A stretch of DNA of 64,000 bases from an uncultured Bacteroides sp. (GCA_964555405.1 CAZKSF010000001.1:26536-90535), one strand, 5' to 3'. Shown: positions 10,182-58,390, counted from the stretch's first letter. Notes: generated from the sequence alone by a model not told the origin. A program made the numbers and translations.

Positions 10182-10184
10182 AGC

Positions 10185-40088: not shown

Positions 40089-43000
40089 TTACTTTGGAGG
40101 GAAAAGAAGCATAAGCGACGGAACAGAAGAAGCTGTGTAACTGCCTATTACAGCTCCTTCGGGAGTCTGGTTCCAAGATTCTCCATCGCAAATGTTACGC
40201 GAAGGATCGCGGCGCGCCCACCCTTCAATTATATTATTCTCGATGAACGGACGGAACTGTTCCTGACCGCACTCATCAACCAAAAGCTTCATATACTGCA
40301 CCCAGATTGCAGGATAGATCCCTTGTTCAAGACCACCCTGATCCATAAGATTACGGCGGTTGTGCGCCCACGGAAGCAGACCATGATCACGTGACATCAC
40401 ATCTATGCTGTACTCGGCAGCCTTGACCGCATTATCAAGATAGCGCTGCTCACCGGTGGCGAGATACAGCAATGCCGAAGCTCCGATATAGGTGCCCTGA
40501 TTGTAGATGAGTGAGCCGCCACGGCGCTCATGACCTGCAAAATGGTCGACCACCTGACCGGTAGCGGTATCGACAAGACTGTCGACACTCCAGTCATATA
40601 TCTCGCGTGCCATCTCCATGTAGCGGTCGCGCGTCTCATAGGCAGGGCGGGTGAAATCGCCGTAACCGTTACTCCATGTTTCGGGCTTCTTGTCAGCCTT
40701 TCGTTTGGCGGGAACGGAATTGTGAAGCAGGACTGCCGCAACGACGGTCGGGAAATTTATACACGACATTTTTCCATCGGTGGCGTTCGGATATTTGGGA
40801 TCACGTAACGGTTGCCACTGCCAGAACATTCCGCCTCCGAGACCCTTTGCCGGATCGGCATAACTGCCGGCGTCACCTACTTCGGGCGACCCGTACCACA
40901 CACGGGCAAAACTCTGCTCGGCAAGACGGCGGTAAGCCTCATTTCCGGTCTGCAGATAGGCTCGCGCCATAGTGATGGTCCACCATTGGATATCATCGTA
41001 GATAAACCATCCTAATGTCTCGTCGGCATTGTCAAAATCAAAATTGAGGTAGTGCCGGATATTACCTTCGAGTATACGGTCAGCAAGATCGGCATAACGT
41101 GCTTCCCGGTCCTTGTCACCGGTCTTAGCTGCAAGAGCCGCAGCATTAAGCGCCATATCGGCAAACATCGGCTGGCACCAGATTGCAGCGGCGCCGTTGA
41201 AACGGTCTGTCGCCTTTGGATCAGCCGAGGTATTGCGGTAGATCATCTTATCGGTGTCGAGATAAACATTGTTGAATGAATCATATGCTTCCCATACATC
41301 ATCAAGAGTGTAAGCGGCAGGAAGCGCAGCAGCCGGATCCCATGAGAATGACACATGAACACCATAGGGATTATTCTCGAAGCGTACGCGGTAAGTTGAA
41401 CTTACCTCGTCCCAGTCGGCATCATCAAACACCTCTTCACCGTCGATCGTCACACTTGCGGGACGGACAGGAAGATAAACGCGTGCGACAGCCGAGGTCT
41501 CCACCGGACCCTTGGCGAGATAACTGAAATGCCCCGGAGCCGCTTTCTCATTGTATTCACGCGAAGCTGAAGCGAGCACCCGTGGAACGGTACGGTCGGT
41601 CATGCGCTGCGGATGCACGAGCAGCGCGTGATGTCCGGGGGCGACGCTGTAAGTGGAATGTACGGTAAGTTCCGGATCGTAAAGATCGATCACGGGTCCG
41701 GTAACAATTACCGGCTCATCACTGACACTTTCGTCAACCACGCCTATTACCTCATACACTCCGCGGTCAAGACGGAAATTGTTCTTGACTTCAAGTTCTC
41801 CGGCACGGGCTCTCTGCTCGTAAAGGCGTTTTACCTCATTGAAAAGCTGCTCGTCGCCTCCTTGGCTGAGGATATATTCCTTTGGGTCATGACGCATGAC
41901 AGTCACGGTACCTCTGCCTGCGCGGTGTTCACCTTCGGCAGGATGACGTCCGAGACCGAGTGTCTCGAAAAGGTGTTCGGATGGGGCTGCATAATCGTTA
42001 TCGCCGGTATTCCACCATTCGCTGACACTCTGGAAAGGATCGGCATCCGTTCCGGTAAACAGCAGGTGACCGCCGGACTCCACCCATGCGGCAAGCTGAC
42101 GATGTGCGATGCTGTCAAGAGGTTTCATATTGGAATAAGTCATCAACAGCACTTTGATATCGGCGAGAGCCGGTCCGTAACCTAAATTCTCGATATGCAC
42201 GGTCTGCACCGGGATTCCGCGCTTTATCATGGGGAGAGCCATTCCGTAAAAATTGGCAAGCTGCGGATCATCGTAACCTTCATGCTGTGGAAAGCGCTGG
42301 AACATCAGGGAGTTCCCCATAAGCACACCGATACCCTGCGATCCGCTGACCCGATTGCCGGAACGCGGCATCTTGTTAAGCGCGTTTACCATCACCTGCA
42401 TCTGAGTGGAGTAGAAGCGGGGTATGCGTCCACGCTCCTCACTGTCGGCACTCATGCGGTAGAGTCCCTCGTAGATACGCTCCGGCCAGGGCATTACCTC
42501 AAAATCGGATATACCCGGATAGAGCAGCTGGGCGGTGAAGGTTGCCTGATAATTTCTCCGGTAGTCCTCCCAGTCCTTTGCGCGGTCCTCGATGGGATCG
42601 GTGAGGAAAAACATCTTACGTCCGGTCGGGGCGGTCATGGCTTCCATTGATCCGTATTCGAGATATGCGGTCTCGAACACACGCTCGCGCTGCTTACCGT
42701 CGTAGAAATTAGGTTCGCGGGATGTACCCGTCCATACCTGGGCGATATATCCGTCGCACGACGGAAGCGAAGCGAGACTTGCCTCCGGACTTACAATCTG
42801 CCATTGGGAATAATTGACCAGAGAGTGAGTGGGCACATAGCATTTGACATCCATACCTTTGGACTTGCCATATTCCTTGGCGAAGGTGAAGATTTCGTCG
42901 AGCGCACGGTAATAGAGATGATATTTGAGTTTGTTGGAGAGATAAGTTGCTTCCGGCGACTCGTCCTGCGGACGCCAGTCGGTGCCGTAATACTCTTTCC

Positions 43001-43505
43001 ACTCGCGCTTGAATGCATCGCTGTATCCGCTCCGTGCCCAGAACTCCGGTTCCTCCATGAAAATGGCGTCGATTCCGGCATCTATGACACGCTTTATGTG
43101 TCGTCCCTTGAGATATTCGAGAAAGTTTTTCGACGGAACGATGTAAGGCACCAGATGTCCGTGCCATATCGTGTCGCCGCGCTGATTCACCTGTCCCTCG
43201 TCCAGGTGCCACTTTCCGTCCCAACCGCCGGTGAAATAGTCCTGATACTCACCCCATGCTATACCGGTCATGAAATGTACGGTATATCCATGATCGCGCC
43301 ACGAACTGACACGCTCCTCGAACGAATTGCTCCGGTGGCGGTCGGAAGGATTTCCTCCCACACCGTACACCATAACGGCATCGGCGCGGTTATCGATAGT
43401 CGGTCGCCACTCGCGCGATGTCTGGAAAGTAGTCTTGACATCGGTCTGCGCCAGCAATGCAGCGGGCATAATTACCGAAGCGAATAAAGTTATTATCTTA
43501 CTCAT
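40089..43505 (-). CDS. Fusion of an unclassified GH-like N-terminal module (~720 aa) and a C-terminal GH76 (~415 aa)
   Basis: SPI-type signal peptide; GH76 catalytic YDDIQWW and YNQG motifs; the N-module has a GH42-trimerisation-like segment (KVLLMTYSNMKP...WVESGGHLLFTG). Junction near 41340. Confidence 0.8.
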   Translation of the reverse strand: MSKIITLFASVIMPAALLAQTDVKTTFQTSREWRPTIDNRADAVMVYGVGGNPSDRHRSNSFEERVSSWRDHGYTVHFMTGIAWGEYQDYFTGGWDGKWHLDEGQVNQRGDTIWHGHLVPYIVPSKNFLEYLKGRHIKRVIDAGIDAIFMEEPEFWARSGYSDAFKREWKEYYGTDWRPQDESPEATYLSNKLKYHLYYRALDEIFTFAKEYGKSKGMDVKCYVPTHSLVNYSQWQIVSPEASLASLPSCDGYIAQVWTGTSREPNFYDGKQRERVFETAYLEYGSMEAMTAPTGRKMFFLTDPIEDRAKDWEDYRRNYQATFTAQLLYPGISDFEVMPWPERIYEGLYRMSADSEERGRIPRFYSTQMQVMVNALNKMPRSGNRVSGSQGIGVLMGNSLMFQRFPQHEGYDDPQLANFYGMALPMIKRGIPVQTVHIENLGYGPALADIKVLLMTYSNMKPLDSIAHRQLAAWVESGGHLLFTGTDADPFQSVSEWWNTGDNDYAAPSEHLFETLGLGRHPAEGEHRAGRGTVTVMRHDPKEYILSQGGDEQLFNEVKRLYEQRARAGELEVKNNFRLDRGVYEVIGVVDESVSDEPVIVTGPVIDLYDPELTVHSTYSVAPGHHALLVHPQRMTDRTVPRVLASASREYNEKAAPGHFSYLAKGPVETSAVARVYLPVRPASVTIDGEEVFDDADWDEVSSTYRVRFENNPYGVHVSFSWDPAAALPAAYTLDDVWEAYDSFNNVYLDTDKMIYRNTSADPKATDRFNGAAAIWCQPMFADMALNAAALAAKTGDKDREARYADLADRILEGNIRHYLNFDFDNADETLGWFIYDDIQWWTITMARAYLQTGNEAYRRLAEQSFARVWYGSPEVGDAGSYADPAKGLGGGMFWQWQPLRDPKYPNATDGKMSCINFPTVVAAVLLHNSVPAKRKADKKPETWSNGYGDFTRPAYETRDRYMEMAREIYDWSVDSLVDTATGQVVDHFAGHERRGGSLIYNQGTYIGASALLYLATGEQRYLDNAVKAAEYSIDVMSRDHGLLPWAHNRRNLMDQGGLEQGIYPAIWVQYMKLLVDECGQEQFRPFIENNIIEGWARRDPSRNICDGESWNQTPEGAVIGSYTASSVPSLMLLFPPK

Positions 43506-43587: not shown

Positions 43588-44400
43588 TCAGGGCACGAGA
43601 ATCTGCATGGGCTCGCTATAGTTATAGCGGCGTACTTCAGCCGTGGAGTAATTGATACGGGCGGCAGCGCGGATATAGACACGCTGACCCGAGGGTATCT
43701 CTCCGTTTGAAGTAATAGTGATCTCCTTGCCGAAATAGTCATCGAAATCACATCCCTGGAATGTCGCGGAAGCTGACCAGCGCTCGTCGCGCGCACGATA
43801 ACCTACCGATGACGAGTAGCTTACGAACAATTGTACGTCAGTTACGTTAAGCAGGTCGTCGGAGTAATCGGAACGGGTCGGCTCGATCTTGTCGCGGAAA
43901 TCGGATTTCGCAACAGCACGCTCTACAACGATTTTGGCTTTTACCTGACCGTTGCTCACCTGCGGTTCGCCAACGATGCGGACTTTAAGGAACGGCTGTA
44001 CCTCGAATTTCACCTTGGCAGTACCCTTGATATATATTTCCTGACCTTCGTCGGCAAGCAGGACACCGTCGGGAGTCTCGCGTACGATAGGGATGAACGG
44101 TCCGTCGACACGCACATAATAGTGACCGCCGAATACCTTGGTGTTCTGGAATGTGCCGTCCGGCATTGCGTAAAAGTCGGGGTTATGATCGGCGTTCTCG
44201 CCCCAGCTCAGTTCTGTCATGCGCACACGGATTCCTTCGCTACCCTGATCGGTAAGGACGCGTTCGCCTGTGGCGACATCCACCACCTCGCCCCAGATGG
44301 TCTCTTCAGGCTCGTCGTAATTGTCGATCTCAAAGAGACTGCAGGAACTCATCGACATCATCAGTGCAGCAAGTGTGCCGAATATTTGAAGTTTTTTCAT
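43588..44400 (-). CDS. DUF3823 lipoprotein (surface glycan-binding candidate)
   Basis: Lipobox MSSC; IDNYDEP...GEVVD..TGE and DGTFQNTKVF..GPF motifs; directly after susD. Confidence 0.85.
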   Translation of the reverse strand: MKKLQIFGTLAALMMSMSSCSLFEIDNYDEPEETIWGEVVDVATGERVLTDQGSEGIRVRMTELSWGENADHNPDFYAMPDGTFQNTKVFGGHYYVRVDGPFIPIVRETPDGVLLADEGQEIYIKGTAKVKFEVQPFLKVRIVGEPQVSNGQVKAKIVVERAVAKSDFRDKIEPTRSDYSDDLLNVTDVQLFVSYSSSVGYRARDERWSASATFQGCDFDDYFGKEITITSNGEIPSGQRVYIRAAARINYSTAEVRRYNYSEPMQILVP

Positions 44401-44430: not shown

Positions 44431-46497
44431 TTAACGGTTAGGCTGCTGATCGATTACAGAGCTCTTGTTCACCTCACCGCCGGGGATTGAGAAGTAGTAG
44501 TCAACCGGGCTGTAGCTGAGCTGCTTCGATGCCATATTCTGGAAATGGGTGTCGAAGAAATATTTGTTGTTGGCTACGCAATAGAACGGATACAGACCAC
44601 GGAAACGGTAATTGTTGCTGTTGCTGAATGAATCCTTGTCGCGGACCTCGCCCCAGAAACCGTCACGACCTTCGTAGTGCTGTACACGCCAGCGACGGAT
44701 ATCCCATTTTGCCTGATGTTCGAAAGCAAGCTCCTTGCGGCGTTCGCGGCGGACTATGTTACGGCTCTCTACCGATCCGGAGAGTGTTCCGGTAAGCTGG
44801 TCGGCACCGGCACGCTCACGGATATCCTTTATAGCCTGGGTGGCGACTGCAAGCATATCGGTACCGTCGGGCGACTGAACGCCGGCGATCGCAAGTTCTA
44901 CGGCTGCCTCAGCCGCGTCAAGAAGCACTTCGGCATAACGCATCAGTATGTAGGGCTGATCGCTCACACCCTCACGACCTCCGATGAAATCGGGATCAAG
45001 CCATTTACGGGTAACAAGACCTGTGACACCTGACTCACCGTATGAGCGGTAAGGTCCGCATGGACCGGTTGCAGGCTTTTCGTTGCCGAATATATCGGTG
45101 ACATATTTCAGCTCGGTAGGACTTGCGCTCATTACAAGCTGATCAGCCTTGGCACATGAAGTGAACTCCTGAGTGGCGTTACCATAGGTATAATCGTTGA
45201 AAAGCGATGTCACGGGGAGGGAACCGGTATACGAACCGGCATACGAGTCAATTGTACCGCCGGCGAATTTGTCACCGGGGAATATTACCTGTGCGCGGAG
45301 ACGAGGCTCGGCATTGGCGAAGAAATCGTAAAGATTGTCGAACATCAGGTACTCGCCTTCGGTAATCTTATCGCCGGTAGTCACCTTAAGGGTGCCGTCG
45401 GGATAACGGTCAAATCCGTCGAAAAGCTCTACAAAATCAGCTGTCGGGCAAGTACCGCAGCTAAGCGGTGAGTGATAGGGGTAGCTTGTGCCCGGAAGAT
45501 ACGGACCGTTGTAGCCGTCGTAGCTGTGAGTGGAAGTGGGATACATGTATTCCTTTACCCACAGATGCTCGGTACTGTTGACATCAAATGTCATGTCGAC
45601 GAGGTTCTCATACTGTGCGTTGCGGTCGTTCGCAGCCCACTTTGATTTGTGAAGCGAGTAAACATTATCGGAAATGATTTCTGAAGCTGCTTTGTAGGCT
45701 TCAGCGAAATAGCGTTTTGATGCTGCTTCCCAGCTGTCGGGCGCGAAACCCATGACACGTACGTTTGTCTTGGAACCGAAACCGGTGAGGTTGCCGTCGA
45801 CAGTCTGATTGTATTTGGCGACAGATCCGGCATAGAGCATGGCACTCGACTTATAGGCAAGAGCTATGTAACGGTTGACATAACCGCGCTTGATGCTCTG
45901 AGGCATCAGAAGTTCGGCTGCTGTGGTGTAATCCTCCAGGATCTGATCCCATGTTTCTTCCTCGGATGAACGGGGAACTTCCAGATTATCCTGATCCTCG
46001 GGATAATTGATCACGCGGGTTACCAAAGGTATACCACCGTAACGCATCGCCATCTGAGTGAACATGAAGGCACGGATGAAGTATGCCTGTCCGAGATAGT
46101 TATTATAGGCGAGTTCGGTGAAATTGCCGCGATAGGCGGGCAGATTTTCGATAAGGAAGTTAGCCTTACGCAATTCACGGAAAGCATCTCTCCAGCAATC
46201 ACCGGCTTTTTCCTCACCGGTGAATGCGGTAACGATACCGTCACGACCTACAGCTTCGCCTGTTCCTTCAACACCCTTGCTGACAAGCCAGCCGTTGAAG
46301 TTGGGACCGCGCTGCGGCAGATATTTCAGGTCCTCGATGGGGAGGTTACTGTAAAGCTCGGCGAGATACAGTTCCATTCCACCCTCGTTGCTGAGAAGGT
46401 CATCGGCTGTCATCATGTTTTTGGGCGAGATGTCAAGGTCGACACACGAGGTGAGAAGACTCAGGCCCATGATGGTTGATATGATGATTTTTTTCAT
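44431..46497 (-). CDS. susD: SusD/RagB family lipoprotein
   Basis: Lipobox LTSC; GQAYFIRAF, YGGIPLV, MRYAEVLL and ERRKELAFE...WDIRRW. Confidence 0.95.
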   Translation of the reverse strand: MKKIIISTIMGLSLLTSCVDLDISPKNMMTADDLLSNEGGMELYLAELYSNLPIEDLKYLPQRGPNFNGWLVSKGVEGTGEAVGRDGIVTAFTGEEKAGDCWRDAFRELRKANFLIENLPAYRGNFTELAYNNYLGQAYFIRAFMFTQMAMRYGGIPLVTRVINYPEDQDNLEVPRSSEEETWDQILEDYTTAAELLMPQSIKRGYVNRYIALAYKSSAMLYAGSVAKYNQTVDGNLTGFGSKTNVRVMGFAPDSWEAASKRYFAEAYKAASEIISDNVYSLHKSKWAANDRNAQYENLVDMTFDVNSTEHLWVKEYMYPTSTHSYDGYNGPYLPGTSYPYHSPLSCGTCPTADFVELFDGFDRYPDGTLKVTTGDKITEGEYLMFDNLYDFFANAEPRLRAQVIFPGDKFAGGTIDSYAGSYTGSLPVTSLFNDYTYGNATQEFTSCAKADQLVMSASPTELKYVTDIFGNEKPATGPCGPYRSYGESGVTGLVTRKWLDPDFIGGREGVSDQPYILMRYAEVLLDAAEAAVELAIAGVQSPDGTDMLAVATQAIKDIRERAGADQLTGTLSGSVESRNIVRRERRKELAFEHQAKWDIRRWRVQHYEGRDGFWGEVRDKDSFSNSNNYRFRGLYPFYCVANNKYFFDTHFQNMASKQLSYSPVDYYFSIPGGEVNKSSVIDQQPNR

Positions 46498-46518: not shown

Positions 46519-49500
46519 TTAGAACGAGAGATTCAAACCTACGGTATATGTGCGGTTAAGCGGGTAGAGACGACCGAGATCCGAATCGGGGTGCTCGGGA
46601 TCGACGAACTTCACCTTAGTGAAGGTAAAAGGATTGTAGCAGTTGAAATATACACGGATTGTATTACCGCCAAGGAGGTGCGACGGCACGGTGTAGCCGA
46701 GTTCGACACTCTTCAGACGCAGGTAATCGGTTGATACACGGTTGAATGAAGAATTATCTCTGGCGTAACGTCCGGAGAAGGCATAATAGCCGGGTACCCA
46801 TTCGGCATTCTGGTCATATACGAACGCTTCGGGGTCAGCTGTGTGCCAACGGTCGGTGAACTGTTCGAGGACACCGCCGCCATTCGAACCCCAGATGGCG
46901 TAGAGGGGTTCCTCGTACTTCATGGAACCCATTGCCGTACCCTGCCAGAGCATATTCAGGTCGAAATCACGCCAGTTGAGCGAAAGATCAAGCGAGAAGT
47001 TCATCCACGGGGTCTGGTCGAATGCAAAGGGGTGTTCATCGAGACCGTCGATCTGACCGTCACCGTTCCAGTCCTCATAACGGTAGTCGCCGGGAAGAAC
47101 GTCGCGTTCTGTGTACAGACGGTCATTCCAGATTTCATACCAGTTGTTATAGCGTCCTGCTCCTTCGTAGCCGAACTGCACACCCTGATAACGGTTGTTA
47201 AGGTTATCATGGCGCCAACGGTCGTAAGAGTTTCCATAGTTGGCGTTCTGCACTGCTGTCAGATATTTGTTACGGGTAACGGAGAAGATGCCACGTGCGC
47301 TCCATGCCCAGTCACCTACACGGTAACGGTGGGTGAGCTGTACTTCAAGACCCATATGACGGTCGGAGTTAAGGTTTTCCTGCGGAGCCTCTGCACCGAC
47401 TACAGTAGGCAGATCGCCTGTGTTACGTGCGAAGAGTCCTTCACGGTTGCGGAGGAAGTATTCGACGGTAGCACCGATAATTCCGTTACCGCCTTCGAAG
47501 TCAACACCTACGTTGAACGTCTTTGCCTTGTACCATGTGAGCAGTTCATTGGGAATTGCAGTGGGGTTAACACCGTAAACGAACTGTCCGTTAAGGATAA
47601 AGCCCGGTGAGTAACCGTTGTAGTTGCCGTTGTCGGCTACGGTTCCGCCACGGTAGGTGTAACCCTGAAGCCATTCGTAATTAATCGAACCGTCATCACC
47701 GAGTACACCATAGCTGGCACGGAGTTTCAACTGATTGAAGAATGCGTGCGTGTCAAGTGATTTGAACCAAGGTTCCTCGCTGATACGCCAGCCTGCCGAT
47801 ACCGACGGGAAGAAACCCCAGCGATGTCCTTTGGCAAACTTTGAAGATCCGTCGTAACGGAACTGACCTTCGATGAGGTAACGGCTGTCGAAATCATAAG
47901 TAAGACGACCGATAAGCGCCTCGTTGCCCATATCATAAAGATCACCTGTACCTGTGTTCATCGAGCCGACCTGACCTTCTTCAACACCTGCGAGAAGATA
48001 CGGTATGGAGAATGCGAGATCGCGGTAAGCGTAGAAGTTGTCGCCGTGACGGCTGGTGGTTTCCCAACCGATGAGTGCGCCTACGTTGTGAAGCTGATTG
48101 AACTTACGGTTGTAGTTAAGAGTGAACTGTGACAGAAGCTGTGATTTGTCGTAGAACTCACGGCGCATATTCGAGGGAGAGCTTGCGGCATAGAGTTTCT
48201 GGATGTATGAATCGGTAGTCTCGTCGTAAGCATACTGATAATATTCCTTACGGTAGATTTCGTTGTTGTCGACCGTATAATCATAGCTGATAAGCGCTTT
48301 TGCCTGCAATCCGGTGAGAGCTTTTGTATAAGCGCCGAGATCGATGGTAAGCGCGGCGCCCGACTGGAATGTCTTTTTCTTGTATTTGCGGTAACCGGTA
48401 ACGTCCGATGTCATCATTGCTACGGTGTTCTGCTCCAGGTCGAGACCGGCATAGTTAAGCATTGTCCCTTCCGGATCGGCGTATGCGGGATACAGCACAC
48501 CCTGCTTCCAGTAATTACGGATAATGTCGACCGCACTGTTATACGGTGTGTTACGGGTGTCGGACATCGCTGAAAGGTTGATGTCGAGTTTAACACCGTT
48601 CCAGAGTTTTGTAGTGAGATTACTGCGGAGGTTGAACTTGTCATAGTTGAGGTCGCCCGACTTGAAAATACCTTCCTGATAGATATATCCGAGGCTTGCG
48701 AAGAACTGGGTGCGGTCATTGCCTCCCGATACACTGATATCGTGCTGTGTCTGGGGAGCCCAATCGGCTATTACCTCGCCGTTCCAGTCGGTCTGACGGC
48801 GTGTACCGTTACGATAAGCCTCGAAATCGGCTTCGGTATAGATTATCGAACCGCCATTGATGTCGTTACGGCTCTTTTCATTCCAGATTGTCATTGCATC
48901 GAGGGCATCGGCAAGTTTCGGCATACCCTGTGGTTTCTGGATTGTGAATGATCCGTTGTAGTTCACTTTGGTCTGACCGGACGCACCGCTCTTGGTGGTG
49001 ACAAGCAGCACACCGTTTGCAGCACGTACACCGTATATTGCGGCGGCAGCATCCTTGAGGACCGAGACATCCTGAATGTCGTTGGCATTCAGACGCTGGA
49101 AATCCTCGACAGTACGGGGAACGCCGTCAATAACCACCAGCGGACTGCCAAGACCGCGGACATCAAAGTTATTGTTATAGGTACCGGGCTCGGCACTCTT
49201 CTGCCAGACACGTACACCGGGTATTTTACCGGTGAGCATGTTCTGCGGGTTTTCGTTGTTGGTCTTGATGATGTCATCGCCCTTGATGGACGACACAGCA
49301 CCTGTGATAGAACCGCGGCGCTGTACGCCGTAACCGACCACCACGACTTCATCCATGACCTGGGCGTTGGTAGTGAGCTGTACATTGATAACTGTACGGC
49401 CGGCTATCTTCTCTTCCTTCGTGTTACAGCCGATATAGCTGAAAACGAGGGTCGCGTCGGGAGAGGTGGTGATGACATATTCGCCGTCGACATTCGTCAC

Positions 49501-49680
49501 GACACCGGTTTTTGTATTTTTCACCATGACCGACGCACCTATGAGCGGTTCATTCTCATGGTCAGTAACCGTACCTGTCACAGTGACGGTCTGTGCCGCG
49601 ACCACACCCGGAAGCAGCGCCGCTAACAGCGCCACCACTGCGAAAGCGGTGCTTAACTTGAATTTTAGGATTCTGAACAT
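46519..49680 (-). CDS. susC: SusC/RagA TonB-dependent transporter
   Basis: N-terminal extension EPLIGASV, EVVVVGYG, LKDAAAAIYGVRAANGVLLVTTK, RYDGSSKF and terminal GLNLSF. Confidence 0.97.
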   Translation of the reverse strand: MFRILKFKLSTAFAVVALLAALLPGVVAAQTVTVTGTVTDHENEPLIGASVMVKNTKTGVVTNVDGEYVITTSPDATLVFSYIGCNTKEEKIAGRTVINVQLTTNAQVMDEVVVVGYGVQRRGSITGAVSSIKGDDIIKTNNENPQNMLTGKIPGVRVWQKSAEPGTYNNNFDVRGLGSPLVVIDGVPRTVEDFQRLNANDIQDVSVLKDAAAAIYGVRAANGVLLVTTKSGASGQTKVNYNGSFTIQKPQGMPKLADALDAMTIWNEKSRNDINGGSIIYTEADFEAYRNGTRRQTDWNGEVIADWAPQTQHDISVSGGNDRTQFFASLGYIYQEGIFKSGDLNYDKFNLRSNLTTKLWNGVKLDINLSAMSDTRNTPYNSAVDIIRNYWKQGVLYPAYADPEGTMLNYAGLDLEQNTVAMMTSDVTGYRKYKKKTFQSGAALTIDLGAYTKALTGLQAKALISYDYTVDNNEIYRKEYYQYAYDETTDSYIQKLYAASSPSNMRREFYDKSQLLSQFTLNYNRKFNQLHNVGALIGWETTSRHGDNFYAYRDLAFSIPYLLAGVEEGQVGSMNTGTGDLYDMGNEALIGRLTYDFDSRYLIEGQFRYDGSSKFAKGHRWGFFPSVSAGWRISEEPWFKSLDTHAFFNQLKLRASYGVLGDDGSINYEWLQGYTYRGGTVADNGNYNGYSPGFILNGQFVYGVNPTAIPNELLTWYKAKTFNVGVDFEGGNGIIGATVEYFLRNREGLFARNTGDLPTVVGAEAPQENLNSDRHMGLEVQLTHRYRVGDWAWSARGIFSVTRNKYLTAVQNANYGNSYDRWRHDNLNNRYQGVQFGYEGAGRYNNWYEIWNDRLYTERDVLPGDYRYEDWNGDGQIDGLDEHPFAFDQTPWMNFSLDLSLNWRDFDLNMLWQGTAMGSMKYEEPLYAIWGSNGGGVLEQFTDRWHTADPEAFVYDQNAEWVPGYYAFSGRYARDNSSFNRVSTDYLRLKSVELGYTVPSHLLGGNTIRVYFNCYNPFTFTKVKFVDPEHPDSDLGRLYPLNRTYTVGLNLSF

Positions 49681-49703: not shown

Positions 49704-51158
49704 CTACTTCTTCTCAAGGTCATGGCATGCGAGCACGGCATACTCGGCAGCGAAACCGAATGTGAACATACCTTCGACATCGCACTTCGCCTGTTCGCGG
49801 CTCCAACCTGCAAGAGGATTGACCGGCAGCATATTATTGTGAAGGAAATGCTCATAACCGTAATCAAGATTCGCCTGAAAAGCGGCGCAACCCTTGGCGG
49901 CATCGGGACATACGCTGTAAGCCTCGGCATATGCACGCATCAGCACTCCGTTGAACCACGGGGAGAAACCGGTCAGGTCGAATGAATAATATCCGGGGCG
50001 GCTCTCGCCAAGTTTCGCGAAATGGGAGAAACTCTTTTCTGTCAGTTCTGCTACATCGGTCTTGAAACGTGAGTCTCCGGTGGCACGCGCCAGGTCGGCG
50101 GCTCCCGAAAGCATGGTTCCGGTATTATAACTGTAGTACTTGCCTGTAGGTCCCTCATCATTATTATGGGCGCGGTAGCGTACTCCGTCGACAGTGATGT
50201 AACTGATCTGACCTTGAGCGCCGCACATATCCCAGTAGACCCCTTTCGAGGCATCGAGAAGCTTGCTCTTCTGCCAGTCGTACACTTTGGTTGCCATAGT
50301 CAGGTAATAGTCGTGTTTCGGCTCGGTAACCTCGAAACGCTTTCCATCCTTGTCGATACGCCGGTAAGTGATCTTGTCATCCTTTCCCTTATAGATATCG
50401 CTGAGCCAGACGAGCGGACTGATTATCGGTCCGTTGCTGCATGAGTGTTTGGTTATATAACCGGGACCCCAGGTGATGCCTCCATATTCGTTTCCTTTGT
50501 TATCGACCGAACAATCCCAACCATCGAGTACATATGAGGTAAGATACTCGGCTTTTTCGAGATAGCCGGCCGTTCCGGTGATTTCGTAAGCCTCCAACAG
50601 TTCACGCACGAGCCATTCCTGGTCATCATAAACATTCAGGACTCCGGTTACATCGGCGGTACCCTTCCCTGAAGCACGGTTTACGGCATATACAGTCCAG
50701 CTGGCAGTGCCTGTATAGGAAGTCAGCGAGTATGTTCCGGCATAGAACTCAAGATTTTCGATGAGACGTGCAAGGAGATCGGTATAGCGGTTCCAGTTGG
50801 CATCGTATAAGGCGCTCTTTCCGTCAGCCTTCAGAGCCTTCATCGCTTTGAGGGTAGCGTTGACAGCCTCGATAGAACTGGTGTACATCCATACGCTTCC
50901 GGTTTCATTCGATCTGTTTCCGGTGTAAGGATTATAATACCGGTGCATGATCATCGACGATGACTCGAAGTAATTGTCAACAGCAGCGTCAATGATGGTT
51001 ATGGCACGTGAAACATTTGTCTCGGCAACAGAATTCTCCGTATTGCCGCCGGGAGTGGTCCCCGGCTGTTCTCCGGAATCCACCTTGGGATCGTCCGAAG
51101 AACAGGAGGCGCTCATTGCGAGCAGTGCCACGGCAGCTAAAACTTTCGATATTTTCAT
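49704..51158 (-). CDS. GH76 endo-alpha-1,6-mannanase-like lipoprotein
   Basis: Lipobox SASC; catalytic YDDQEW, GGITW, CSNGP and YSYNTG motifs. Confidence 0.92.
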   Translation of the reverse strand: MKISKVLAAVALLAMSASCSSDDPKVDSGEQPGTTPGGNTENSVAETNVSRAITIIDAAVDNYFESSSMIMHRYYNPYTGNRSNETGSVWMYTSSIEAVNATLKAMKALKADGKSALYDANWNRYTDLLARLIENLEFYAGTYSLTSYTGTASWTVYAVNRASGKGTADVTGVLNVYDDQEWLVRELLEAYEITGTAGYLEKAEYLTSYVLDGWDCSVDNKGNEYGGITWGPGYITKHSCSNGPIISPLVWLSDIYKGKDDKITYRRIDKDGKRFEVTEPKHDYYLTMATKVYDWQKSKLLDASKGVYWDMCGAQGQISYITVDGVRYRAHNNDEGPTGKYYSYNTGTMLSGAADLARATGDSRFKTDVAELTEKSFSHFAKLGESRPGYYSFDLTGFSPWFNGVLMRAYAEAYSVCPDAAKGCAAFQANLDYGYEHFLHNNMLPVNPLAGWSREQAKCDVEGMFTFGFAAEYAVLACHDLEKK

Positions 51159-51186: not shown

Positions 51187-52983
51187 TCAGTCGATGGTCA
51201 CTTTGTTGAACACGAGCTTGTTTTCATCACCGTTCTGCTCTCCGTTGTGGACGCTGACGGTGATCAGGACATCCTGACCGTTGAACTGTGACAAGTCGTA
51301 GACAAAGTCACAGTAGTTGTCGCCGCTCTTGAATTTCCAGCATCCGTTATCAGCTGCTGAAGCGTCTTCGCAGGTATTGCTTACAGGAGCGAGGGCATTT
51401 ACATTGCAGTCCATGGTAATGGCGTTGACCTTGAAGAAGGTGTAATTGCCACCGAAGTTGCGTGTGGTGAGAGTGAGTTTGTTGTGACCTTCATAAATCG
51501 AGAACTTGGCATAGACATATGATTCCGGTTCATCGAGATTAGCGGGTTCGTTACCACGGGTCTTTATCAACCATCCCTCGCCGGGGAATACTTCCGGGTC
51601 TTTATGCAGCGGCATGAATGTCCAGTAAGCCATGATATGCCCTGCTTCGTGCCAGGTTGAATATGCGTCACGATAGTTATCGCGGTTACCGCCTACCGGG
51701 CTGATACCGGTAAATGAGGTGCGGTCCTGCGGCATTGACGAACGTACGATTGATTCTGTCATATGCCATCCGCCGAGTGCGGGGAGCTCGGTACCGGGCA
51801 TCCAGCAGATGACATCGGTGAACGGCTCGTTGGAGAATGCGATGCGACGGAGTACGAGCTGATGCCAGTAATCGCCGGTCTCCTTACGGAACTGTCCGAT
51901 TACTACCACGACTTCTTTTCCTATATATCCGGAAAGGTCGAACGCCTCATTCATATATGAACCGGTATCACACATGCGCTCACCGCCGATGAGTACCGCC
52001 TTCGGTTCGGCAGCCTCGAGGTCGATAACCTGAACACCCCAATAACAGGGAGGCTGATGAGTACGTACCTGAACTGTGAGGATACTGTTGTCGGCAGTGA
52101 TCAGCTTGCGTCCATACACGAAAGAATCGAAGTTCTCGCTGTCGGCAGGATTTGACTGATCGTCGGAACTGTTGCGGATACGAAGTGTCGAACCCTCGTT
52201 CTGTTCTTCATAGTCACCGTTCCATGTTGTGAATGTAGCCATGTAATTACATGCCCAGTCGAACATGGGGTAGGCATCGGCATTTCGACCGCCCTTATAC
52301 TCGTTGTTGTACCAACGCGGTGCCTGACGGAGATCTTCGGCAGTAAGACCGCGAAGTATCTCTATGCCGCCGATACGTGCGTCAAAGGTAGCTACACCAT
52401 CAACGAAATCATCCATTTTGATTGCTTTGGTTACGGTAGCGAAACCTTCTTTCGATACGGTTATGGTGTAGTCGCGGAGCACGAGACCCGAAATCTCGTA
52501 ACGTCCGTCAGCACCGGTCTTGACAGTCTTTGCCGAGCTGACACTTACTGTCACACCTTCGAGCGGTGCGCCATTGTTGCGGGCATCTGTGATAACACCT
52601 TTGATAGAGGCGTCAGCAAAAACCATCTCTACATCAGCAGTGGCAATGTTTGATTTGAATTTTGAAGGAACAAGAGTAATTGAAGTTGTCTCGTAACCAT
52701 CTTTTTCGAATAGAATGATCTGACCTTCGCTGTGGATAGCCACATCACTTAATGTGTAAGAACCGTCAGTACCGGTAGTGGTGGTTTTCGATGATTCTTT
52801 GTCGGTGACTGTTACGCCGGCGATAGGCACGGCAAGTTCGTCGGTCACCTTTCCTGAAACTTGTCCGGTTCCGACAATCGAGTCGGACTGGACTTCCTTG
52901 TCATCATGACACGACGCAGCCAGCATGGCAAGGCAGCTGATTGCGAAGAGCCCGAATGATTTAAGAGCAGATTTCACTTTCAT
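51187..52983 (-). CDS. Lipoprotein with two carboxypeptidase-regulatory-like domains and two tandem beta-sandwich domains (surface glycan-binding candidate)
   Basis: Lipobox AASC; GKVTD...PIAGVTV...DGSY and GVITD...PLEGVTV...DGRY repeats; FDLSGYIG and YDLSQFNG modules. Confidence 0.75.
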   Translation of the reverse strand: MKVKSALKSFGLFAISCLAMLAASCHDDKEVQSDSIVGTGQVSGKVTDELAVPIAGVTVTDKESSKTTTTGTDGSYTLSDVAIHSEGQIILFEKDGYETTSITLVPSKFKSNIATADVEMVFADASIKGVITDARNNGAPLEGVTVSVSSAKTVKTGADGRYEISGLVLRDYTITVSKEGFATVTKAIKMDDFVDGVATFDARIGGIEILRGLTAEDLRQAPRWYNNEYKGGRNADAYPMFDWACNYMATFTTWNGDYEEQNEGSTLRIRNSSDDQSNPADSENFDSFVYGRKLITADNSILTVQVRTHQPPCYWGVQVIDLEAAEPKAVLIGGERMCDTGSYMNEAFDLSGYIGKEVVVVIGQFRKETGDYWHQLVLRRIAFSNEPFTDVICWMPGTELPALGGWHMTESIVRSSMPQDRTSFTGISPVGGNRDNYRDAYSTWHEAGHIMAYWTFMPLHKDPEVFPGEGWLIKTRGNEPANLDEPESYVYAKFSIYEGHNKLTLTTRNFGGNYTFFKVNAITMDCNVNALAPVSNTCEDASAADNGCWKFKSGDNYCDFVYDLSQFNGQDVLITVSVHNGEQNGDENKLVFNKVTID

Positions 52984-53353: not shown

Positions 53354-55660
53354 ATGACAAACAAATTTTTTTCAACAGGTTCCACACGTCTTGCCATGGT
53401 GGTGTCGGGCATCGCCGCAGCACTGATGGCTAACGCCGCCGACCCCGTTGACTATGTGAATACTCTCGTAGGTTCACAATCGAAACATTCGCTTTCCACC
53501 GGTAATACCTATCCTGCCGTAGCCATGCCCTGGGGAATGAATTTCTGGACTCCCCAGACCGGTAAAACAGGCGATGGCTGGGCTTACACTTACGATGCTG
53601 AAAAGATCCGCGGTATCAAACAGACTCACCAGCCGAGTCCGTGGATCAACGATTACGCACAGTTCGCGATAATGCCCGTCACCGGAAAGGTGGTTTTCGA
53701 CGAGGATGAGCGTGCAAGCTGGTTCTCGCACAAGGCAGAAGTAGCGAAACCTTACTATTACCGCACTTATCTTGCCGACTGGGATGTGATTGCCGAAATC
53801 GCTCCCACCGACCGTGCTGCAATAATGCAGTTCACTTTCCCGGAATCAGAACTTTCAACTGTTATTGTGGACCCGTTCGACAATGGCTCATCAGTTACAG
53901 TCGACCCCACAAAACGCCGTATCACCGGATATACCACTAAAAATTCGGGCGGTGTCCCGGAGAATTTCCGGAACTATTTTGTTATTGAATTCGACAAACC
54001 ATTCACCTATACCGCTACCGTAACCGACGGAAATATCAATCAGGGAACTCTCTCGGCAACCGCCAACCACGCAGGTGGAATTATAGGTTTCCCTACCGTG
54101 AAAGGTGAAAAGGTGACGGCACGTATCGCCTCGTCGTTCATCAGCCCCGAACAGGCGGAGATAAACCTGCGCGAACTTGACGGCAAGAATTTCGAGGCTG
54201 TAAAGTCGGAAGGACGTGCACGCTGGAATGAGGTACTCGGGCGCATTGAGGTGGAAGACAATGATATAGACCGTCTGCGCACTTTCTATTCCTGTCTTTA
54301 CCGGTCTGTACTGTTCCCCCGTAGTTTTTATGAAATCGATGCTGAGGGCAACCCGGTACATTATAGCCCCTATAACGGCGAAGTGCTTCCGGGGTACATG
54401 TTCACCGATACCGGTTTCTGGGACACATTCCGCGCACTTTTCCCGTTCCTTAACCTCATGTATCCGTCAATGAATGCAAAAATTCAGGAGGGTCTTGCCA
54501 ATACTTACAAAGAGAGCGGTTTTCTGCCCGAGTGGGCAAGTCCCGGTCACCGCGGATGTATGGTAGGTAACAACTCTGCTTCTATTGTTGCGGATGCCTG
54601 GCTTTCAGGGGTGCGGGGGCAGGATATCGAAGCTCTCTGGGAAGGTGTGGTAAGCGGCACTACTAAAGTACATCCTCAGGTATCATCGACAGGCAGGCTC
54701 GGGCACGAATACTACAATACACTCGGATACGTACCTTATGACGTGAATATCAAAGAGAATGCAGCCCGTACACTCGAATATGCCTACGATGACTGGTGTA
54801 TCTATCAGCTTGGCAAGGCTCTCGGCAAGTCAAAAAAAGAATTGAAACCGTTTGCCGAACGCGCTCTCAATTACCGGAATCTATACGATCCTGAACACCG
54901 TCTGATGCGCGGACGTAATCAGGACGGTTCGTTCCAGTCGCCTTTCAACCCGCTGAAGTGGGGCGATGCCTTCACCGAAGGCAACAGCTGGCACTATTCA
55001 TGGTCAGTATTCCATGATCCACAAGGACTTATAGATCTTATGGGTGGTAAACCGATATTTGTGGCTATGCTTGACTCCGTATTCACAGTTCCGCCGGTAT
55101 TCGATGACAGCTATTACGGAGGCGTGATACACGAGATACGTGAAATGCAGATAATGAACATGGGCAATTATGCACATGGCAATCAGCCTATACAGCACAT
55201 GATTTATCTGTATGACTGGGCGGGAGAACCCTGGAAGACCCAATACTGGGTGCGTGAGACTATGGACCGCATGTACAACCCTAATCCTGACGGTTATTGC
55301 GGCGATGAGGACAACGGACAGACTTCAGCCTGGTATGTTTTCTCGGCGCTCGGATTCTATCCTGTATGTCCGGGCAGTGGCGAATATGCACTCGGAGCAC
55401 CTCTGTTCCGCAAGGCAACGCTTCATCTCGAAAATGGCAACGATGTGATTATCAATGCACCGGACAACAGTAATGCAAACCGATATATCGGCAAGCTTAC
55501 TGTTAACGGCAAAGCGACAGATCGTAATTATCTTACTCAGAAGGAACTCTTTGACGGCGCGGTTCTCAACTTCGAGATGCAGGATACGCCGGCGACAACC
55601 CGCGGTACGGCTCCCGGCTCTGTTCCTTATTCATTCAGCAGTGAACTCTCGGCTAAATAG
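53354..55660 (+). CDS. GH92 alpha-mannosidase
   Basis: GNTYP..AMPWGMNFWTPQT, THQPSPW, DTGFWDTFR, TLEYAYDD, EGNSWHY, GNQP and DEDNGQTSAW. Confidence 0.96.
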   Translation: MTNKFFSTGSTRLAMVVSGIAAALMANAADPVDYVNTLVGSQSKHSLSTGNTYPAVAMPWGMNFWTPQTGKTGDGWAYTYDAEKIRGIKQTHQPSPWINDYAQFAIMPVTGKVVFDEDERASWFSHKAEVAKPYYYRTYLADWDVIAEIAPTDRAAIMQFTFPESELSTVIVDPFDNGSSVTVDPTKRRITGYTTKNSGGVPENFRNYFVIEFDKPFTYTATVTDGNINQGTLSATANHAGGIIGFPTVKGEKVTARIASSFISPEQAEINLRELDGKNFEAVKSEGRARWNEVLGRIEVEDNDIDRLRTFYSCLYRSVLFPRSFYEIDAEGNPVHYSPYNGEVLPGYMFTDTGFWDTFRALFPFLNLMYPSMNAKIQEGLANTYKESGFLPEWASPGHRGCMVGNNSASIVADAWLSGVRGQDIEALWEGVVSGTTKVHPQVSSTGRLGHEYYNTLGYVPYDVNIKENAARTLEYAYDDWCIYQLGKALGKSKKELKPFAERALNYRNLYDPEHRLMRGRNQDGSFQSPFNPLKWGDAFTEGNSWHYSWSVFHDPQGLIDLMGGKPIFVAMLDSVFTVPPVFDDSYYGGVIHEIREMQIMNMGNYAHGNQPIQHMIYLYDWAGEPWKTQYWVRETMDRMYNPNPDGYCGDEDNGQTSAWYVFSALGFYPVCPGSGEYALGAPLFRKATLHLENGNDVIINAPDNSNANRYIGKLTVNGKATDRNYLTQKELFDGAVLNFEMQDTPATTRGTAPGSVPYSFSSELSAK

Positions 55661-55681
55661 CAGCATTAGTTTCAGTATATA

Positions 55682-55736
55682 AAAAACATGTCAGCCCGCA
55701 GTCTTATATTTCCTGACTGCGGGCTGACATGTTTTT
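55682..55736. terminator. Bidirectional terminator
   Basis: Perfect 22-bp inverted repeat aaaaacatgtcagcccgcagtc / gactgcgggctgacatgttttt between convergent genes. Confidence 0.9.
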
Positions 55737-55763: not shown

Positions 55764-58259
55764 TTATTTCATCTTCTGCTCAAGCATCTTGATAAAATAA
55801 CCTCCCACTACCGCACGCGCCTGGAAACCACGCTGTTCGGGACGATCGGTGAATACCCAGTCGCTCATAGGAACACGGTTGGATGTCTCGTTCATGAAAT
55901 CATAGACCGGAGAGATGAACTCCACGAATGTCTCCTTATCGGGTGCCATAGTAGCGGTCCACATTATCCAGTCGGTCTTGGTGTAAAGTTCGCGGTTATC
56001 GAGCGGAAGTCCGTAACGGTTCTGTTTCGCAAGATAGTAAGGTATTTCCTTCCTGATAATTGAATCGGCAAAGACATCGAATCCCATCAGCTTATCCCAT
56101 ACCATATTATACTTCTGGCTCCAACTTCCGGGCTTATCGAATGTCAACCTGTAATGATCGCCGTCATTGGCAAGTTTCTCCCATTCAGTTGCCATTTCAC
56201 GTGCCATTTTATCGTATTTTTCGGCTACCTCTTTTTTCCCAAGCATTCCGGCAAGATAACTGTATGATTCAAGCCCCATGATAGCTTTGACCGAAAGATT
56301 TGCGTTATGAGCGAAGTGACCGGCAAAATCGTCAGTACAAAGCTGATTCTCAGGATCAAGACCAAATTCTGCAAGATATTCAGCCCATGTTGTAAGAGTC
56401 GACCAGTGTTTTGCGGCATAATCGGCATTCCCTTCAATGCGGGCAAGCGCGCCGGCAAGAATCAGCATATTACCTCCCTCTTCGACAGGCATGTCACCAC
56501 CATAAGTCTGACCGTTTGCAAGCGGATATGTTCCGACATCGTGTGCCGGGAATGGTTTTACCCAGCCGTATTTCTCGCTGTAATCAAAAATATGGTTCAT
56601 AAGCCCCTTTACAAGTTCGGGATTGTACAGCAGGAACAACGGTGCCGACGGATAGGTTATGTCAACCGTGCCGATAGAGCCATTGCTGAAATTCTCCTTC
56701 GAAAACCATAGAAGTTCACCGTCGGGTGATTCGACGAGCTTGTGCGCCGCAATTGCCTGACGGTAAGCGAGTGCGCAAAGAGCCGCATATTCCTCGCCCC
56801 CGGCTTCGGTAGCCTGTGCGAGCATTTCCCTATCAAATTCTGCGGTTTCTTTCATCAGTTGCGGATAATCGCGGGCTGCCGATGCGAGCTGATCAGCAAT
56901 CGTTGAACTATTGTTGCGGTTCCAGTAGGGCCGGAGATTATTCCCGAAATACTGAATCGAATAACCGTCGTCGTAAGCAAACATCAGAAATCCCGAAACA
57001 GCCGATTTACCCACTTTACCCTTATCGATAACCATGCCTATGCGTTCGCCAACGACCGGAATAATCGAATCACCGGCTATAAAAGCCTGACGCGCTGCCA
57101 CTCCATCAGCGATAAACGGTGTTACACCATCCTTGGCGGATGCAAGATAGAAACGCCCCCAGTCAATGCGTACATCATCGCCGGAACGGTTAACAGGATT
57201 CTGTTCGACATTAGCGACAGTCACCGCACACAGATTATCAGGCAGTTCCAATATTGATGACTCGGCAGTCTGACCGATATTGTCCAGCGCCCATTCTTTT
57301 CCAGCCTCTACGTAAAACTCCACGTCGTGCTCCTGACCGTCATTTGAAACCACCTCATAGGTCATATAATTCACCGGACGCGACAGCAAGTCAAGCCGGT
57401 CAAGGAAAGCAGGAGCCGTAAATGTAATCTTAAGATCAGTCGCGCCGCAAGTGAAAGTATAGATAGTGTTCATCGGATTCACAACGGCAGAAGTCTGCAC
57501 TGCCTCATTGGTGAAAAAGCGCGATGCCGACATCTCGGCATCCACACCATAATCAACAAACGCGAGTCCTCCGCGATCCATACACCAGGCGGCTATCACA
57601 TTGCCCTGAGGGCGCAAGGTAGCCTTGACTTCATCGCTAAGCTCGGCTGTGCGGTTCTTCTGTGCGTCATTACCGGTATCGACCACTTTTATTCCGTTGA
57701 TATAACCTATCATATCATCATCGTGTGAGTAATTGAGATACAATGGTTTATCCGAGACATCCTCCGGCATGTCGAATGTGCGGCGTGTCCATATCTCCGG
57801 ACCGTTCCATTCTGTTTTAGCAAGACTTTCGGCAGGTATCGAACCGAATGCACCCTCACCCGAATTCCATGACGAATCATCAAAACCCGGCTTCATCCAG
57901 TCATCCGAAGGTTTTTCGGTGACAAATCTGCCACTCCACGCCCCGCTTGCCGCAGTAGGTACGATATTTGTCAGTATCGGAAGTTCCTGCCCCATGAAGC
58001 GATAAATCTCACCGTCGATGCGCACGGCACCTATAAGCGGGAAGGGTTTGCCGGTCCAGTGGGTGACACCTGCACCGTACAGCTGATCAGAAGCCGACCA
58101 TGCACTTGTGTAAGGGTCAATAGTCACAAGCGGATATGCCGGAGCCCTGAGCGCTACCGGCTCAGAGGCGTCCGGCTTATGGCAGCTCTGAAGTGTTAAA
58201 ACTCCACCGGTCAGCACGACGACAGATGCTGCCAGCGGGAGTAGTCTGAAATTGTACAT
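55764..58259 (-). CDS. 'Glutaminase A'-family lipoprotein (DUF4964/DUF5127/DUF4965-type) with inserted galactose-binding-like domain
   Basis: Lipobox LQSC; RAPAYPLVTIDPY, KENFSNG..TVD, HDVG.YP, MPVEE.GNM, QLCTDDFAG and YTKTDW; start placed at ATG 58259. Confidence 0.88.
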   Translation of the reverse strand: MYNFRLLPLAASVVVLTGGVLTLQSCHKPDASEPVALRAPAYPLVTIDPYTSAWSASDQLYGAGVTHWTGKPFPLIGAVRIDGEIYRFMGQELPILTNIVPTAASGAWSGRFVTEKPSDDWMKPGFDDSSWNSGEGAFGSIPAESLAKTEWNGPEIWTRRTFDMPEDVSDKPLYLNYSHDDDMIGYINGIKVVDTGNDAQKNRTAELSDEVKATLRPQGNVIAAWCMDRGGLAFVDYGVDAEMSASRFFTNEAVQTSAVVNPMNTIYTFTCGATDLKITFTAPAFLDRLDLLSRPVNYMTYEVVSNDGQEHDVEFYVEAGKEWALDNIGQTAESSILELPDNLCAVTVANVEQNPVNRSGDDVRIDWGRFYLASAKDGVTPFIADGVAARQAFIAGDSIIPVVGERIGMVIDKGKVGKSAVSGFLMFAYDDGYSIQYFGNNLRPYWNRNNSSTIADQLASAARDYPQLMKETAEFDREMLAQATEAGGEEYAALCALAYRQAIAAHKLVESPDGELLWFSKENFSNGSIGTVDITYPSAPLFLLYNPELVKGLMNHIFDYSEKYGWVKPFPAHDVGTYPLANGQTYGGDMPVEEGGNMLILAGALARIEGNADYAAKHWSTLTTWAEYLAEFGLDPENQLCTDDFAGHFAHNANLSVKAIMGLESYSYLAGMLGKKEVAEKYDKMAREMATEWEKLANDGDHYRLTFDKPGSWSQKYNMVWDKLMGFDVFADSIIRKEIPYYLAKQNRYGLPLDNRELYTKTDWIMWTATMAPDKETFVEFISPVYDFMNETSNRVPMSDWVFTDRPEQRGFQARAVVGGYFIKMLEQKMK

Positions 58260-58390
58260 AGTATGTTTGATTAGTAATCTTTGATATGCGAAATTAATCA
58301 TTATCAGAGAGGTGCGATGTGCGGTTTTTGGTCAAAAAAGTATGTTTTATGTCGGATTATTGCTAACTTTGACCGAAATTTCTGAATACC

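Follow-up and report, generated by a model that had tools for sequence, protein, structure and literature searches.

Gut Bacteroidota have a major glycan in the α-mannan of yeasts and other fungi, and the accepted model for its degradation, which involves glycoside hydrolases (GHs) of the families GH76, GH92, GH125, GH38 and GH99 together with phosphatases, was built on Bacteroides thetaiotaomicron. The GH76 enzymes BT2631 and BT3782, which are encoded in the MAN-PULs (PUL, polysaccharide utilization locus) of this organism and were the subject of work by Cuskin and colleagues in 2015, are reportedly periplasmic and act after import. A two-headed organization is known from the sulfatase-mannanase PbSulf1-GH195, in which a decoration-removing head is coupled to a backbone-cleaving head, and an O. 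pacifica relative of this protein encodes both domains as separate genes (PMC13063451). Here, we analyze a gene with a likewise two-headed product in a stretch of 64,000 nucleotides (GCA_964555405.1 CAZKSF010000001.1:26536-90535; hereafter, the window) listed under an uncultured Bacteroides sp. The gene, at 40089..43505 on the minus strand, encodes a fusion of an N-terminal module of ~700 aa to a GH76 domain. We suggest that the protein works in the periplasm as a two-headed enzyme and belongs to a fungal-type α-mannan locus of a Muribaculaceae bacterium, and we give this reading a probability of about 0.55. Compared with PbSulf1-GH195, the partner of the backbone-cleaving head is an uncharacterised family rather than a sulfatase, and the coupling of two activities in the fusion is a presumed logic.

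As judged from structural models, the module has the build of GH42, GH164 and GH35 enzymes and not their sequence. The best structural match is the GH35 β-1,2-glucosyltransferase IaSGT of Ignavibacterium album (7VKY; Foldseek E 1.6e-12, template modeling (TM) score 0.47, ~750 columns); however, the two are only 13-14% identical, the module has no GH35 Pfam match, and IaSGT is tied to β-1,2-glucan. The GH164 β-mannosidase Bs164 of Bacteroides salyersiae (6T5O; Foldseek E 7.6e-11) is from a gut Bacteroides, acts on mannosides and shares the GH42-like architecture of the module, but its identity to the module is 11%, there is no sequence relation by profile at E<=10, and its gene neighborhood is a different one. 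In the GH42 β-galactosidases (Thermus A4-β-gal, 1KWG; Gan42B, 4OIF; Marinomonas, 6Y2K), the domain order is the same as in the module. The full-length Foldseek matches to this family, which include 6Y2K, 3TTS, 5DFA and 1KWG, have E values of 1e-8 to 1e-10 and TM scores of 0.46-0.51, and in both cases a Glu at the end of β4 is followed by a Pro or an aromatic residue. By contrast, the identity is 10-12%, none of 51 members of the module family matches PF02449, and GH42 enzymes occur in galactan and lactose contexts while the module occurs in an α-mannan context. Moreover, the Asn-Glu motif and the Glu nucleophile of GH42 and clan GH-A are replaced in the module by E151-E152-P and D303 at the analogous positions. 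Because the motif is EEP and not NEP and the second residue is Asp and not Glu, the module is not filed under GH42 or clan GH-A, and the analogy to GH42 may be architectural only.

Two described proteins were rejected as relatives of the module. The B. salyersiae protein 'GH42_dist' is presumably the later GH164 founder Bs164, which has no sequence relation to the module. A paper on the mannan PUL of B. salyersiae contains no unknown protein matching the module. The 'GH42_dist' protein was reported by Helbert et al. (PMC6442616). GH195 (PMC13063451) is GH99-like and unrelated to the module.

Layout of the fusion protein

The open reading frame (ORF) at 40089..43505 (-) is unbroken over 1138 aa plus the stop codon. 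A signal peptide of the signal peptidase I (SPI) type is followed by the module, a 15-aa linker and an intact GH76 domain, with the following features:

40089..43505, minus strand: whole fusion gene; continuous ORF, 1138 aa plus stop
43446..43505, minus strand: SPI-type signal peptide, aa 1-20, MSKIITLFASVIMPAALLAQ, no lipobox Cys (read from the sequence)
42336..43388, minus strand: predicted (β/α)8 barrel of the module, aa ~40-390 (AlphaFold2 barrel-only model)
43044..43055, minus strand: E151-E152-P153-E154 at the C-terminal end of β4, candidate acid/base region (conservation and DSSP)
42585..42599, minus strand: D303-P304-I-E-D307 at the C-terminal end of β7, candidate nucleophile/base region (conservation)
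41946..42335, minus strand: predicted α/β domain, GH42 trimerisation-like and class I glutamine amidotransferase-like, aa ~391-520 (DSSP, weak Pfam matches)
41340..41945, minus strand: predicted C-terminal β-sandwich of the module, aa ~521-722, ending with W722 (DSSP, pLDDT above 90)
41295..41339, minus strand: linker DPAAALPAAYTLDDV, aa 723-737 (comparison of the junction with loci L022, L025 and L005)
40092..41294, minus strand: predicted GH76 endo-α-1,6-mannanase domain, aa 738-1138 (PF03663, 4BOJ, identity to the L022 protein)

A previous reading of the window from its sequence alone (the sequence-only reading) had described much of this layout. The motifs that it quoted are found at aa 77 (HFMTGIAWGEY), aa 149 (FMEEPEFW), aa 281 (YLEYG) and aa 335 (FEVMPWP), and its linker motif DPAAALPAA, placed near 41340, is present at aa 723 with the first codon at nt 41339. 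Signal-peptide types were assigned by eye from the sequence. In agreement with the sequence-only reading, the N-terminus of the fusion protein, MSKIITLFASVIMPAALLAQ followed by TD, lacks a lipobox Cys, while the GH76 protein encoded upstream has a lipobox (LLAMSASC followed by SSDD). Similar non-lipoprotein signals are present in most members of the module family in Bacteroidota.

With Pfam, the sole match in the whole ORF is to GH76 (PF03663; 74 bits, cutoff 25.9) in the C-terminal third. Thirteen GH76 chains in the PDB match this domain, the best being 4BOJ (Aman6 of Bacillus circulans; E 3.8e-14). FIYDDIQWW of the fusion aligns over the catalytic FNDDIMWW of Aman6, which bears out the intact GH76 with a YDD motif of the sequence-only reading and places YDD at aa 836-838 and the catalytic Asp pair D837/D838 at nt 40992-40997. 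By sequence, the C-terminal head is thus predicted to be a conventional GH76 endo-α-1,6-mannanase. A duplicate of the GH76 that is otherwise encoded in the PUL was considered and rejected, because the fused domain and this lipoprotein are only 24% identical in a pairwise comparison; accordingly, the fused GH76 is a distinct paralogue captured by fusion with a neighbor.

Fold, conservation and candidate active site of the module

The module was not recognized by the libraries searched. Within aa 1-720 of the window protein, there is no Pfam match, including none to PF02449 (Glyco_hydro_42) at E<=0.1, and no NCBIfam match was found. A permissive Pfam scan (E<=1) of 51 diverse members of the family gave no match to the barrel and none to PF02449 or GH35; in the middle domain, weak matches were to DUF4350 (18/51), GLMA_2nd (3), ThuA (2) and Glyco_hydro_42M (1). 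A search of PDB sequences, by phmmer with the single sequence and with the family profile (E<=10), returned only noise (endolysin, GGDEF, CRP). Full-text literature searches found no description of the module family, of a characterised member or of this type of PUL.

An AlphaFold2 model of aa 1-720 was computed from a 40-sequence alignment, with a mean predicted local distance difference test score (pLDDT) of 77 and a predicted TM score (pTM) of 0.78. By DSSP, this model has a barrel (~43-345), a Rossmann-like α/β domain (~390-515) and a β-sandwich (~525-720), the last of which is confidently predicted with pLDDT above 90. With Foldseek against the PDB, the model has full-length matches, over ~750 columns, to three-domain GH35, GH164 and GH42 enzymes, and GH112 and the trimeric GH5 Op5Man5, an exo-β-1,4-mannosidase, are also among the full-length matches; overall, these have TM scores of 0.45-0.51 and 10-14% identity. 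Both the DSSP assignment and the full-length matches agree with the layout of a barrel, a trimerisation-like domain and a β-rich end that had been read from the sequence. A second model, of the barrel by itself, was computed from a deeper alignment that spans phyla (pLDDT 84.9). Its Foldseek matches are to GH14, GH153 PgaB/BpsB, GH35, GH31, GH66, GH156, GH42, GH168 and GH53, and they are weak, the best having TM scores of about 0.58-0.59 (0.58 for GH153 PgaB/BpsB) and E values of about 1e-6. Because these weak matches are scattered with no family preferred, the barrel was not assigned to a single closest family.

The module family is large. Its homologues number more than 7,663 proteins, nearly all of which are standalone 'hypothetical proteins' of ~725-731 aa without Pfam domains, and the best reach E = 0, a match far beyond chance. 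When representatives at 50% identity were searched exhaustively with HMMER, 1,284 clusters matched, of which 435 have E<=1e-30, and the family is encoded in at least 597 species genomes. Carriers are found in Muribaculaceae, Alistipes, Bacteroides, Parabacteroides, Dysgonomonas, Prevotella, Sphingobacterium, Prolixibacteraceae and Chitinophagaceae, and identity among these Bacteroidota is 62-80% from Muribaculaceae through Sphingobacterium, that is, across orders. Planctomycetota, Acidobacteriota and Cohnella have remoter members. Fusions to CBM9 and, in one case, to GxGYxYP also exist within the family.

Conservation and model together point to a candidate active site. Across phyla, W84, Y121, E152, P153, E154, W156, H227, N231, W258, E283, Y284, D303, P304, D307, W340 and R343 are invariant (alignment A3), while E151, H100, H115, R263 and E336 are at least 90% conserved; D303, P304 and D307 are at least 90% conserved in alignment A2. 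By DSSP, the models place E151/E152 after β4, H227 after β5, W258 at the end of β6, D303 at the end of β7, and E336 and W340 at β8. In other words, the conserved residues would lie at the C-terminal ends of the strands or shortly beyond them, which is the usual place of the active site in (β/α)8 glycosidases, and the modeled arrangement of carboxylates at β4 and β7 recalls clan GH-A.

Origin of the fusion and gene neighborhood

The fusion is genuine. An assembly error had been raised as a possibility in the sequence-only reading and is rejected, as is an assembly chimera, because fused orthologues recur in independent assemblies. The window protein is a 100% match to P0001, and the fused orthologues P0002, P0004 and P0005 are 78-81% identical to it. 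An independent Muribaculum metagenome-assembled genome (MAG; locus L005) encodes, at the corresponding place in the operon, a fused orthologue of 1139 aa and about 80% identity. Seven proteins from NCBI, ENA, Logan and JGI, found on more than 25 contigs, make up the fused cluster WP_295729663.1.

The two parts are also encoded as separate genes, as the sequence-only reading had proposed to look for: the module is standalone in most genomes, and adjacent genes for the module and a lipoprotein GH76 are found in some Muribaculaceae. W722 of the fusion is the point at which standalone homologues stop (...SFCW and stop), and the nearest unfused relative (L006; 78%) stops at this normal module end. 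Four Muribaculaceae loci (L020, L022, L025 and L029) have, immediately downstream of the module, a GH76 of the fused type. In the two that were inspected (L022 and L025), this GH76 is encoded by a gene of its own, 40-160 nt downstream, and the standalone L022 protein shares 64% identity with the fused domain. Standalone GH76 orthologues open with the lipoprotein signal MKLIPFSIIAASLIGAAAC followed by GSS. Instead of this signal, the fusion has the 15-aa linker DPAAALPAAYTLDDV right after the terminal Trp of the module, in line with the earlier remark that there is no second signal peptide. As read from these junctions, the fusion arose by the joining of adjacent genes for the module and the lipoprotein GH76, with loss of the signal peptide of the GH76.

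The window has the layout of an α-mannan PUL, with adjacent SusC and SusD genes, two GH76 genes, a GH92 gene and a hybrid two-component system (HTCS) regulator:

43588..44400, minus strand: DUF3823-like surface lipoprotein (weak PF18003)
44431..46497, minus strand: SusD-like protein (PF07980, PF14322)
46519..49680, minus strand: SusC-like TonB-dependent transporter (orthologues carry CarbopepD_reg_2 and Plug domains)
49704..51158, minus strand: second GH76, a lipoprotein (PF03663, lipobox)
51187..52983, minus strand: CarboxypepD_reg-domain lipoprotein, first gene of the operon (PF13620)
53354..55660, plus strand: GH92 α-mannosidase (PF07971, E 5.9e-170)
55764..58301, minus strand: GtaA-like protein (DUF4964/DUF5127/six-hairpin; Pfam), uncharacterised
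58391..62476, plus strand: HTCS regulator (Reg_prop, HisKA, HATPase_c, Response_reg, HTH_AraC)

The minus-strand operon reads, in order, CarboxypepD_reg lipoprotein, lipoprotein GH76, SusC, SusD, DUF3823-like protein and fusion, with intergenic gaps of 21-82 nt.

Synteny in relatives was counted over 84 fetched loci. The neighbors of the module include SusC/D in 56/84 loci, the DUF3823-like protein in 53/84, a lipoprotein-type GH76 in 50/84, GH92 in 49/84, the GtaA-like protein and the CarboxypepD_reg protein in 40/84 each, and GH125 in 14/84. In Bacteroides and Phocaeicola, the order is CarboxypepD_reg, GH76, SusC, SusD, a 271-aa protein, the standalone 727-aa module, GtaA-like, GH92 and GH125. 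There is no phosphatase among the neighbors of the module, either in the window or in the loci of relatives, and the chitobiose-core enzymes GH18, GH85, GH20 and GH130 are not found in the conserved locus. Beyond Bacteroidota, the module of the Firmicute Cohnella thermotolerans is encoded in an ABC-transporter operon directly after a GH38 α-mannosidase, and it adjoins a GtaA-like gene (L085 12421-14433) and GxGYxYP fragments. GxGYxYP is an uncharacterised putative GH that is present in the α-mannan PUL BT3853-62 of B. thetaiotaomicron and, elsewhere, near GH92 and GH38 (PMC4071793). Like the module, GxGYxYP (PF14323) and GtaA-like (PF16335) proteins are uncharacterised, glycosidase-like and recurrent with α-mannosidases. 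However, GxGYxYP is a 7-stranded barrel and GtaA-like has an (α/α)6 fold, and they are associates of the module and not its homologues. For the GtaA-like protein, no solved relative was found in the PDB by sequence.

Distant members in Acidobacteriota and Planctomycetota have contexts unrelated to mannan. These contexts were not used as a clue to the substrate, and it follows that the mannan link holds for the Bacteroidota subfamily and Cohnella and not necessarily for the whole family. On one soil Acidobacteriota-like contig (L089 10001-14362), a distant member is followed by a PMT-family (dolichyl-phosphate-mannose-type) glycosyltransferase, which may be a mannose-related link outside PULs.

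Several further observations concern individual loci. In relatives (L001/L007 12180-17000), the module is followed on its own strand by the GtaA-like and GH92 genes, whereas in the window (53354-58301) these two genes are located upstream of the operon and differ in strand from each other; thus, a rearrangement accompanied or followed the GH76 fusion in the window lineage. In the Muribaculum MAG of L007, the module is split into two ORFs of 318 and 386 aa (9977-12166), and a split into 234 and 806 aa affects the SusC gene of L005 (3799-6959); both could be frameshifts, pseudogenes or MAG sequencing errors. The CarboxypepD_reg lipoprotein of the window (51187-52983) has 598 aa, two CarboxypepD_reg domains and a weak MetallophosN match, has no solved relative in the PDB, and is possibly a surface glycan-binding protein. 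Just downstream of the fusion, 35121-38936 (-) encodes a 1271-aa protein with five tandem repeats of ~68 aa that start with YE(Y/W)WFDND, followed by CHB_HEX_C/Fn3_assoc repeats and, by eye, a C-terminal ~80 aa resembling a type IX secretion system (T9SS) sorting domain. Before this gene, a 321-aa protein without Pfam match is encoded at 38954-39919 in a stretch of lower GC (0.42). Both genes are missing from the syntenic PULs of relatives. Elsewhere in the window, the 2-kb stretch 2001-4000 has a GC of 0.38 compared with about 0.49 around it.

Proposed function and alternative explanations

Based on these data, we propose the following model for the fusion protein. The SPI-type signal of the module is kept in the fusion, and we therefore infer that the protein is periplasmic and acts after import by SusC/D. 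The N-terminal head (aa ~21-722) would be a barrel glycosidase of a candidate new family, with E152, helped by E151 and E154, at β4 and D303, together with D307, at β7 as candidate catalytic carboxylates. This head would strip from imported mannan oligosaccharides a residue or decoration that blocks, or survives, GH92, GH125 and GH76, for example a branch-point or capping residue; that its target is a side chain or cap may reasonably be expected. The α-1,6 backbone exposed in this way would then be cut by the tethered GH76. The link of the module to α-mannan is supported by the fusion, by the synteny with GH76, GH92 and GH125 genes in PULs and by the GH38 neighbor in Cohnella. Judged against Pfam, NCBIfam, PDB sequences and the literature, the module is a candidate for a new GH family that is built on a known scaffold.

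Several points weigh against this model. The residue that the models place at β7, D303, is an Asp and not a Glu as in clan GH-A; in the sequence, the residue before the putative acid/base is a Glu (E151) and not an Asn; and several of the invariant His, Asp and Glu residues would also suit a metal site. In addition, the structural matches of the modeled barrel are weak and spread over mechanistically different families, and the distant subfamilies are found in non-mannan contexts, such that specificity may vary. The metal site is central to the idea that the barrel is a non-glycosidase enzyme, possibly metal-bound, that removes a non-sugar decoration of mannan such as a mannosyl-phosphate diester or monoester or an acyl group. 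A phosphatase is reportedly present in the MAN-PULs of B. thetaiotaomicron in the 2015 work of Cuskin and colleagues, and the PUL type of the window lacks one; moreover, H100, H115, H227, E152, E154, E283, D303 and D307 are conserved and could form a metal site, and the β7 residue is an Asp rather than a Glu. However, the three-domain architecture matches glycosidases and transglycosidases only, nearly all barrel-level matches are GH families, many invariant aromatics (W84, Y121, W156, W258, Y284 and W340) are typical of sugar subsites, and the fusions of other members are to CBM9 and a putative GH, and we consider a non-glycosidase quite improbable. Even less can be said for a non-catalytic module that, as an oligomerising or carbohydrate-binding scaffold, brings the GH76 into multimers or holds the substrate. 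In its favor, the module includes a trimerisation-like domain, and GxGYxYP proteins of mannan PULs, a family fused to the module elsewhere, were inactive when tested (personal communication cited in PMC4071793). On the other hand, the module is as a rule a standalone protein, such that service to a partner domain is not its purpose, and the carboxylates on the barrel face are strongly conserved in a pattern of active sites rather than of binding modules, which makes a mere scaffold highly improbable.

Two alternatives leave the module a glycosidase. In one, it belongs to a recently created CAZy family that lacks a Pfam or NCBIfam model or a solved structure, in which case the finding would be a new multidomain arrangement of known families. 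There are GH42-like families with sparse coverage, e.g. GH147, GH165 and GH167; the GH42-like architecture is common to several newer clan GH-A families, and UniRef labels one member of the module family 'Beta-galactosidase trimerisation domain-containing protein'. Nevertheless, the 2025 Pfam models did not match the barrel in any of the 51 diverse members, NCBIfam had no match, and PDB sequences gave none even by profile; the source names are uniformly 'hypothetical protein', the full-text searches returned no description, and GH164 and GH195 are specifically excluded, rendering an existing classification improbable. The other is a more specific form of our model, namely that the module is a retaining β-glycosidase for non-α-mannosyl parts of fungal mannoprotein glycans, such as the core Man-β-1,4-GlcNAc, β-1,2-mannose caps or a β-linked 2-amino or 2-acetamido sugar. 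The nearest full-length folds are β-acting, among them the GH164 β-mannosidase and GH5 Op5Man5, and the carboxylates lie at β4 and β7 as in clan GH-A. By analogy with GH20, GH84 and GH2 CsxA, E151 in place of the GH-A Asn could suit a 2-amino sugar or neighboring-group chemistry, and weak matches to GLMA_2nd, from exo-β-glucosaminidase, occur in the middle domain. Yet identity to these folds is only 10-14%, the barrel alone shows no preference for clan GH-A, D303 is not the canonical Glu nucleophile, and GH18, GH85, GH20 and GH130 are absent from the conserved locus; this specific form is possible, but on the unlikely side.

Returning to the two-headed mannan enzyme, we regard the module as a well-supported enzyme-discovery lead in a much-studied system, with a predicted activity. 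The natural GH76 fusion and the GH38-linked operon of Cohnella both tie the module to α-mannoside processing. More tentatively, and at somewhat less than even odds, the module may found a new GH family for a step in the catabolism of fungal α-mannan or mannoprotein that has so far been assigned to no enzyme. It would then be part of a 'second tier' together with GtaA-like and GxGYxYP proteins, extending from gut and soil Bacteroidota to Firmicutes, and its EEPE/D303 site would depart from clan GH-A chemistry within a GH42-type scaffold.

If the module were inactive or already classified, the finding would shrink to an ordinary domain fusion. As it stands, a PUL type that is kept in hundreds of species, and that differs from the one on which the accepted model was built, encodes a protein of ~727 aa that is shaped like a glycosidase and is recognized by none of the libraries searched. 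If active, the module would define a new CAZy family and sharpen the prediction from PULs of fungal glycan use in microbiomes, and it would also provide a handle on the co-occurring GtaA-like and GxGYxYP proteins.

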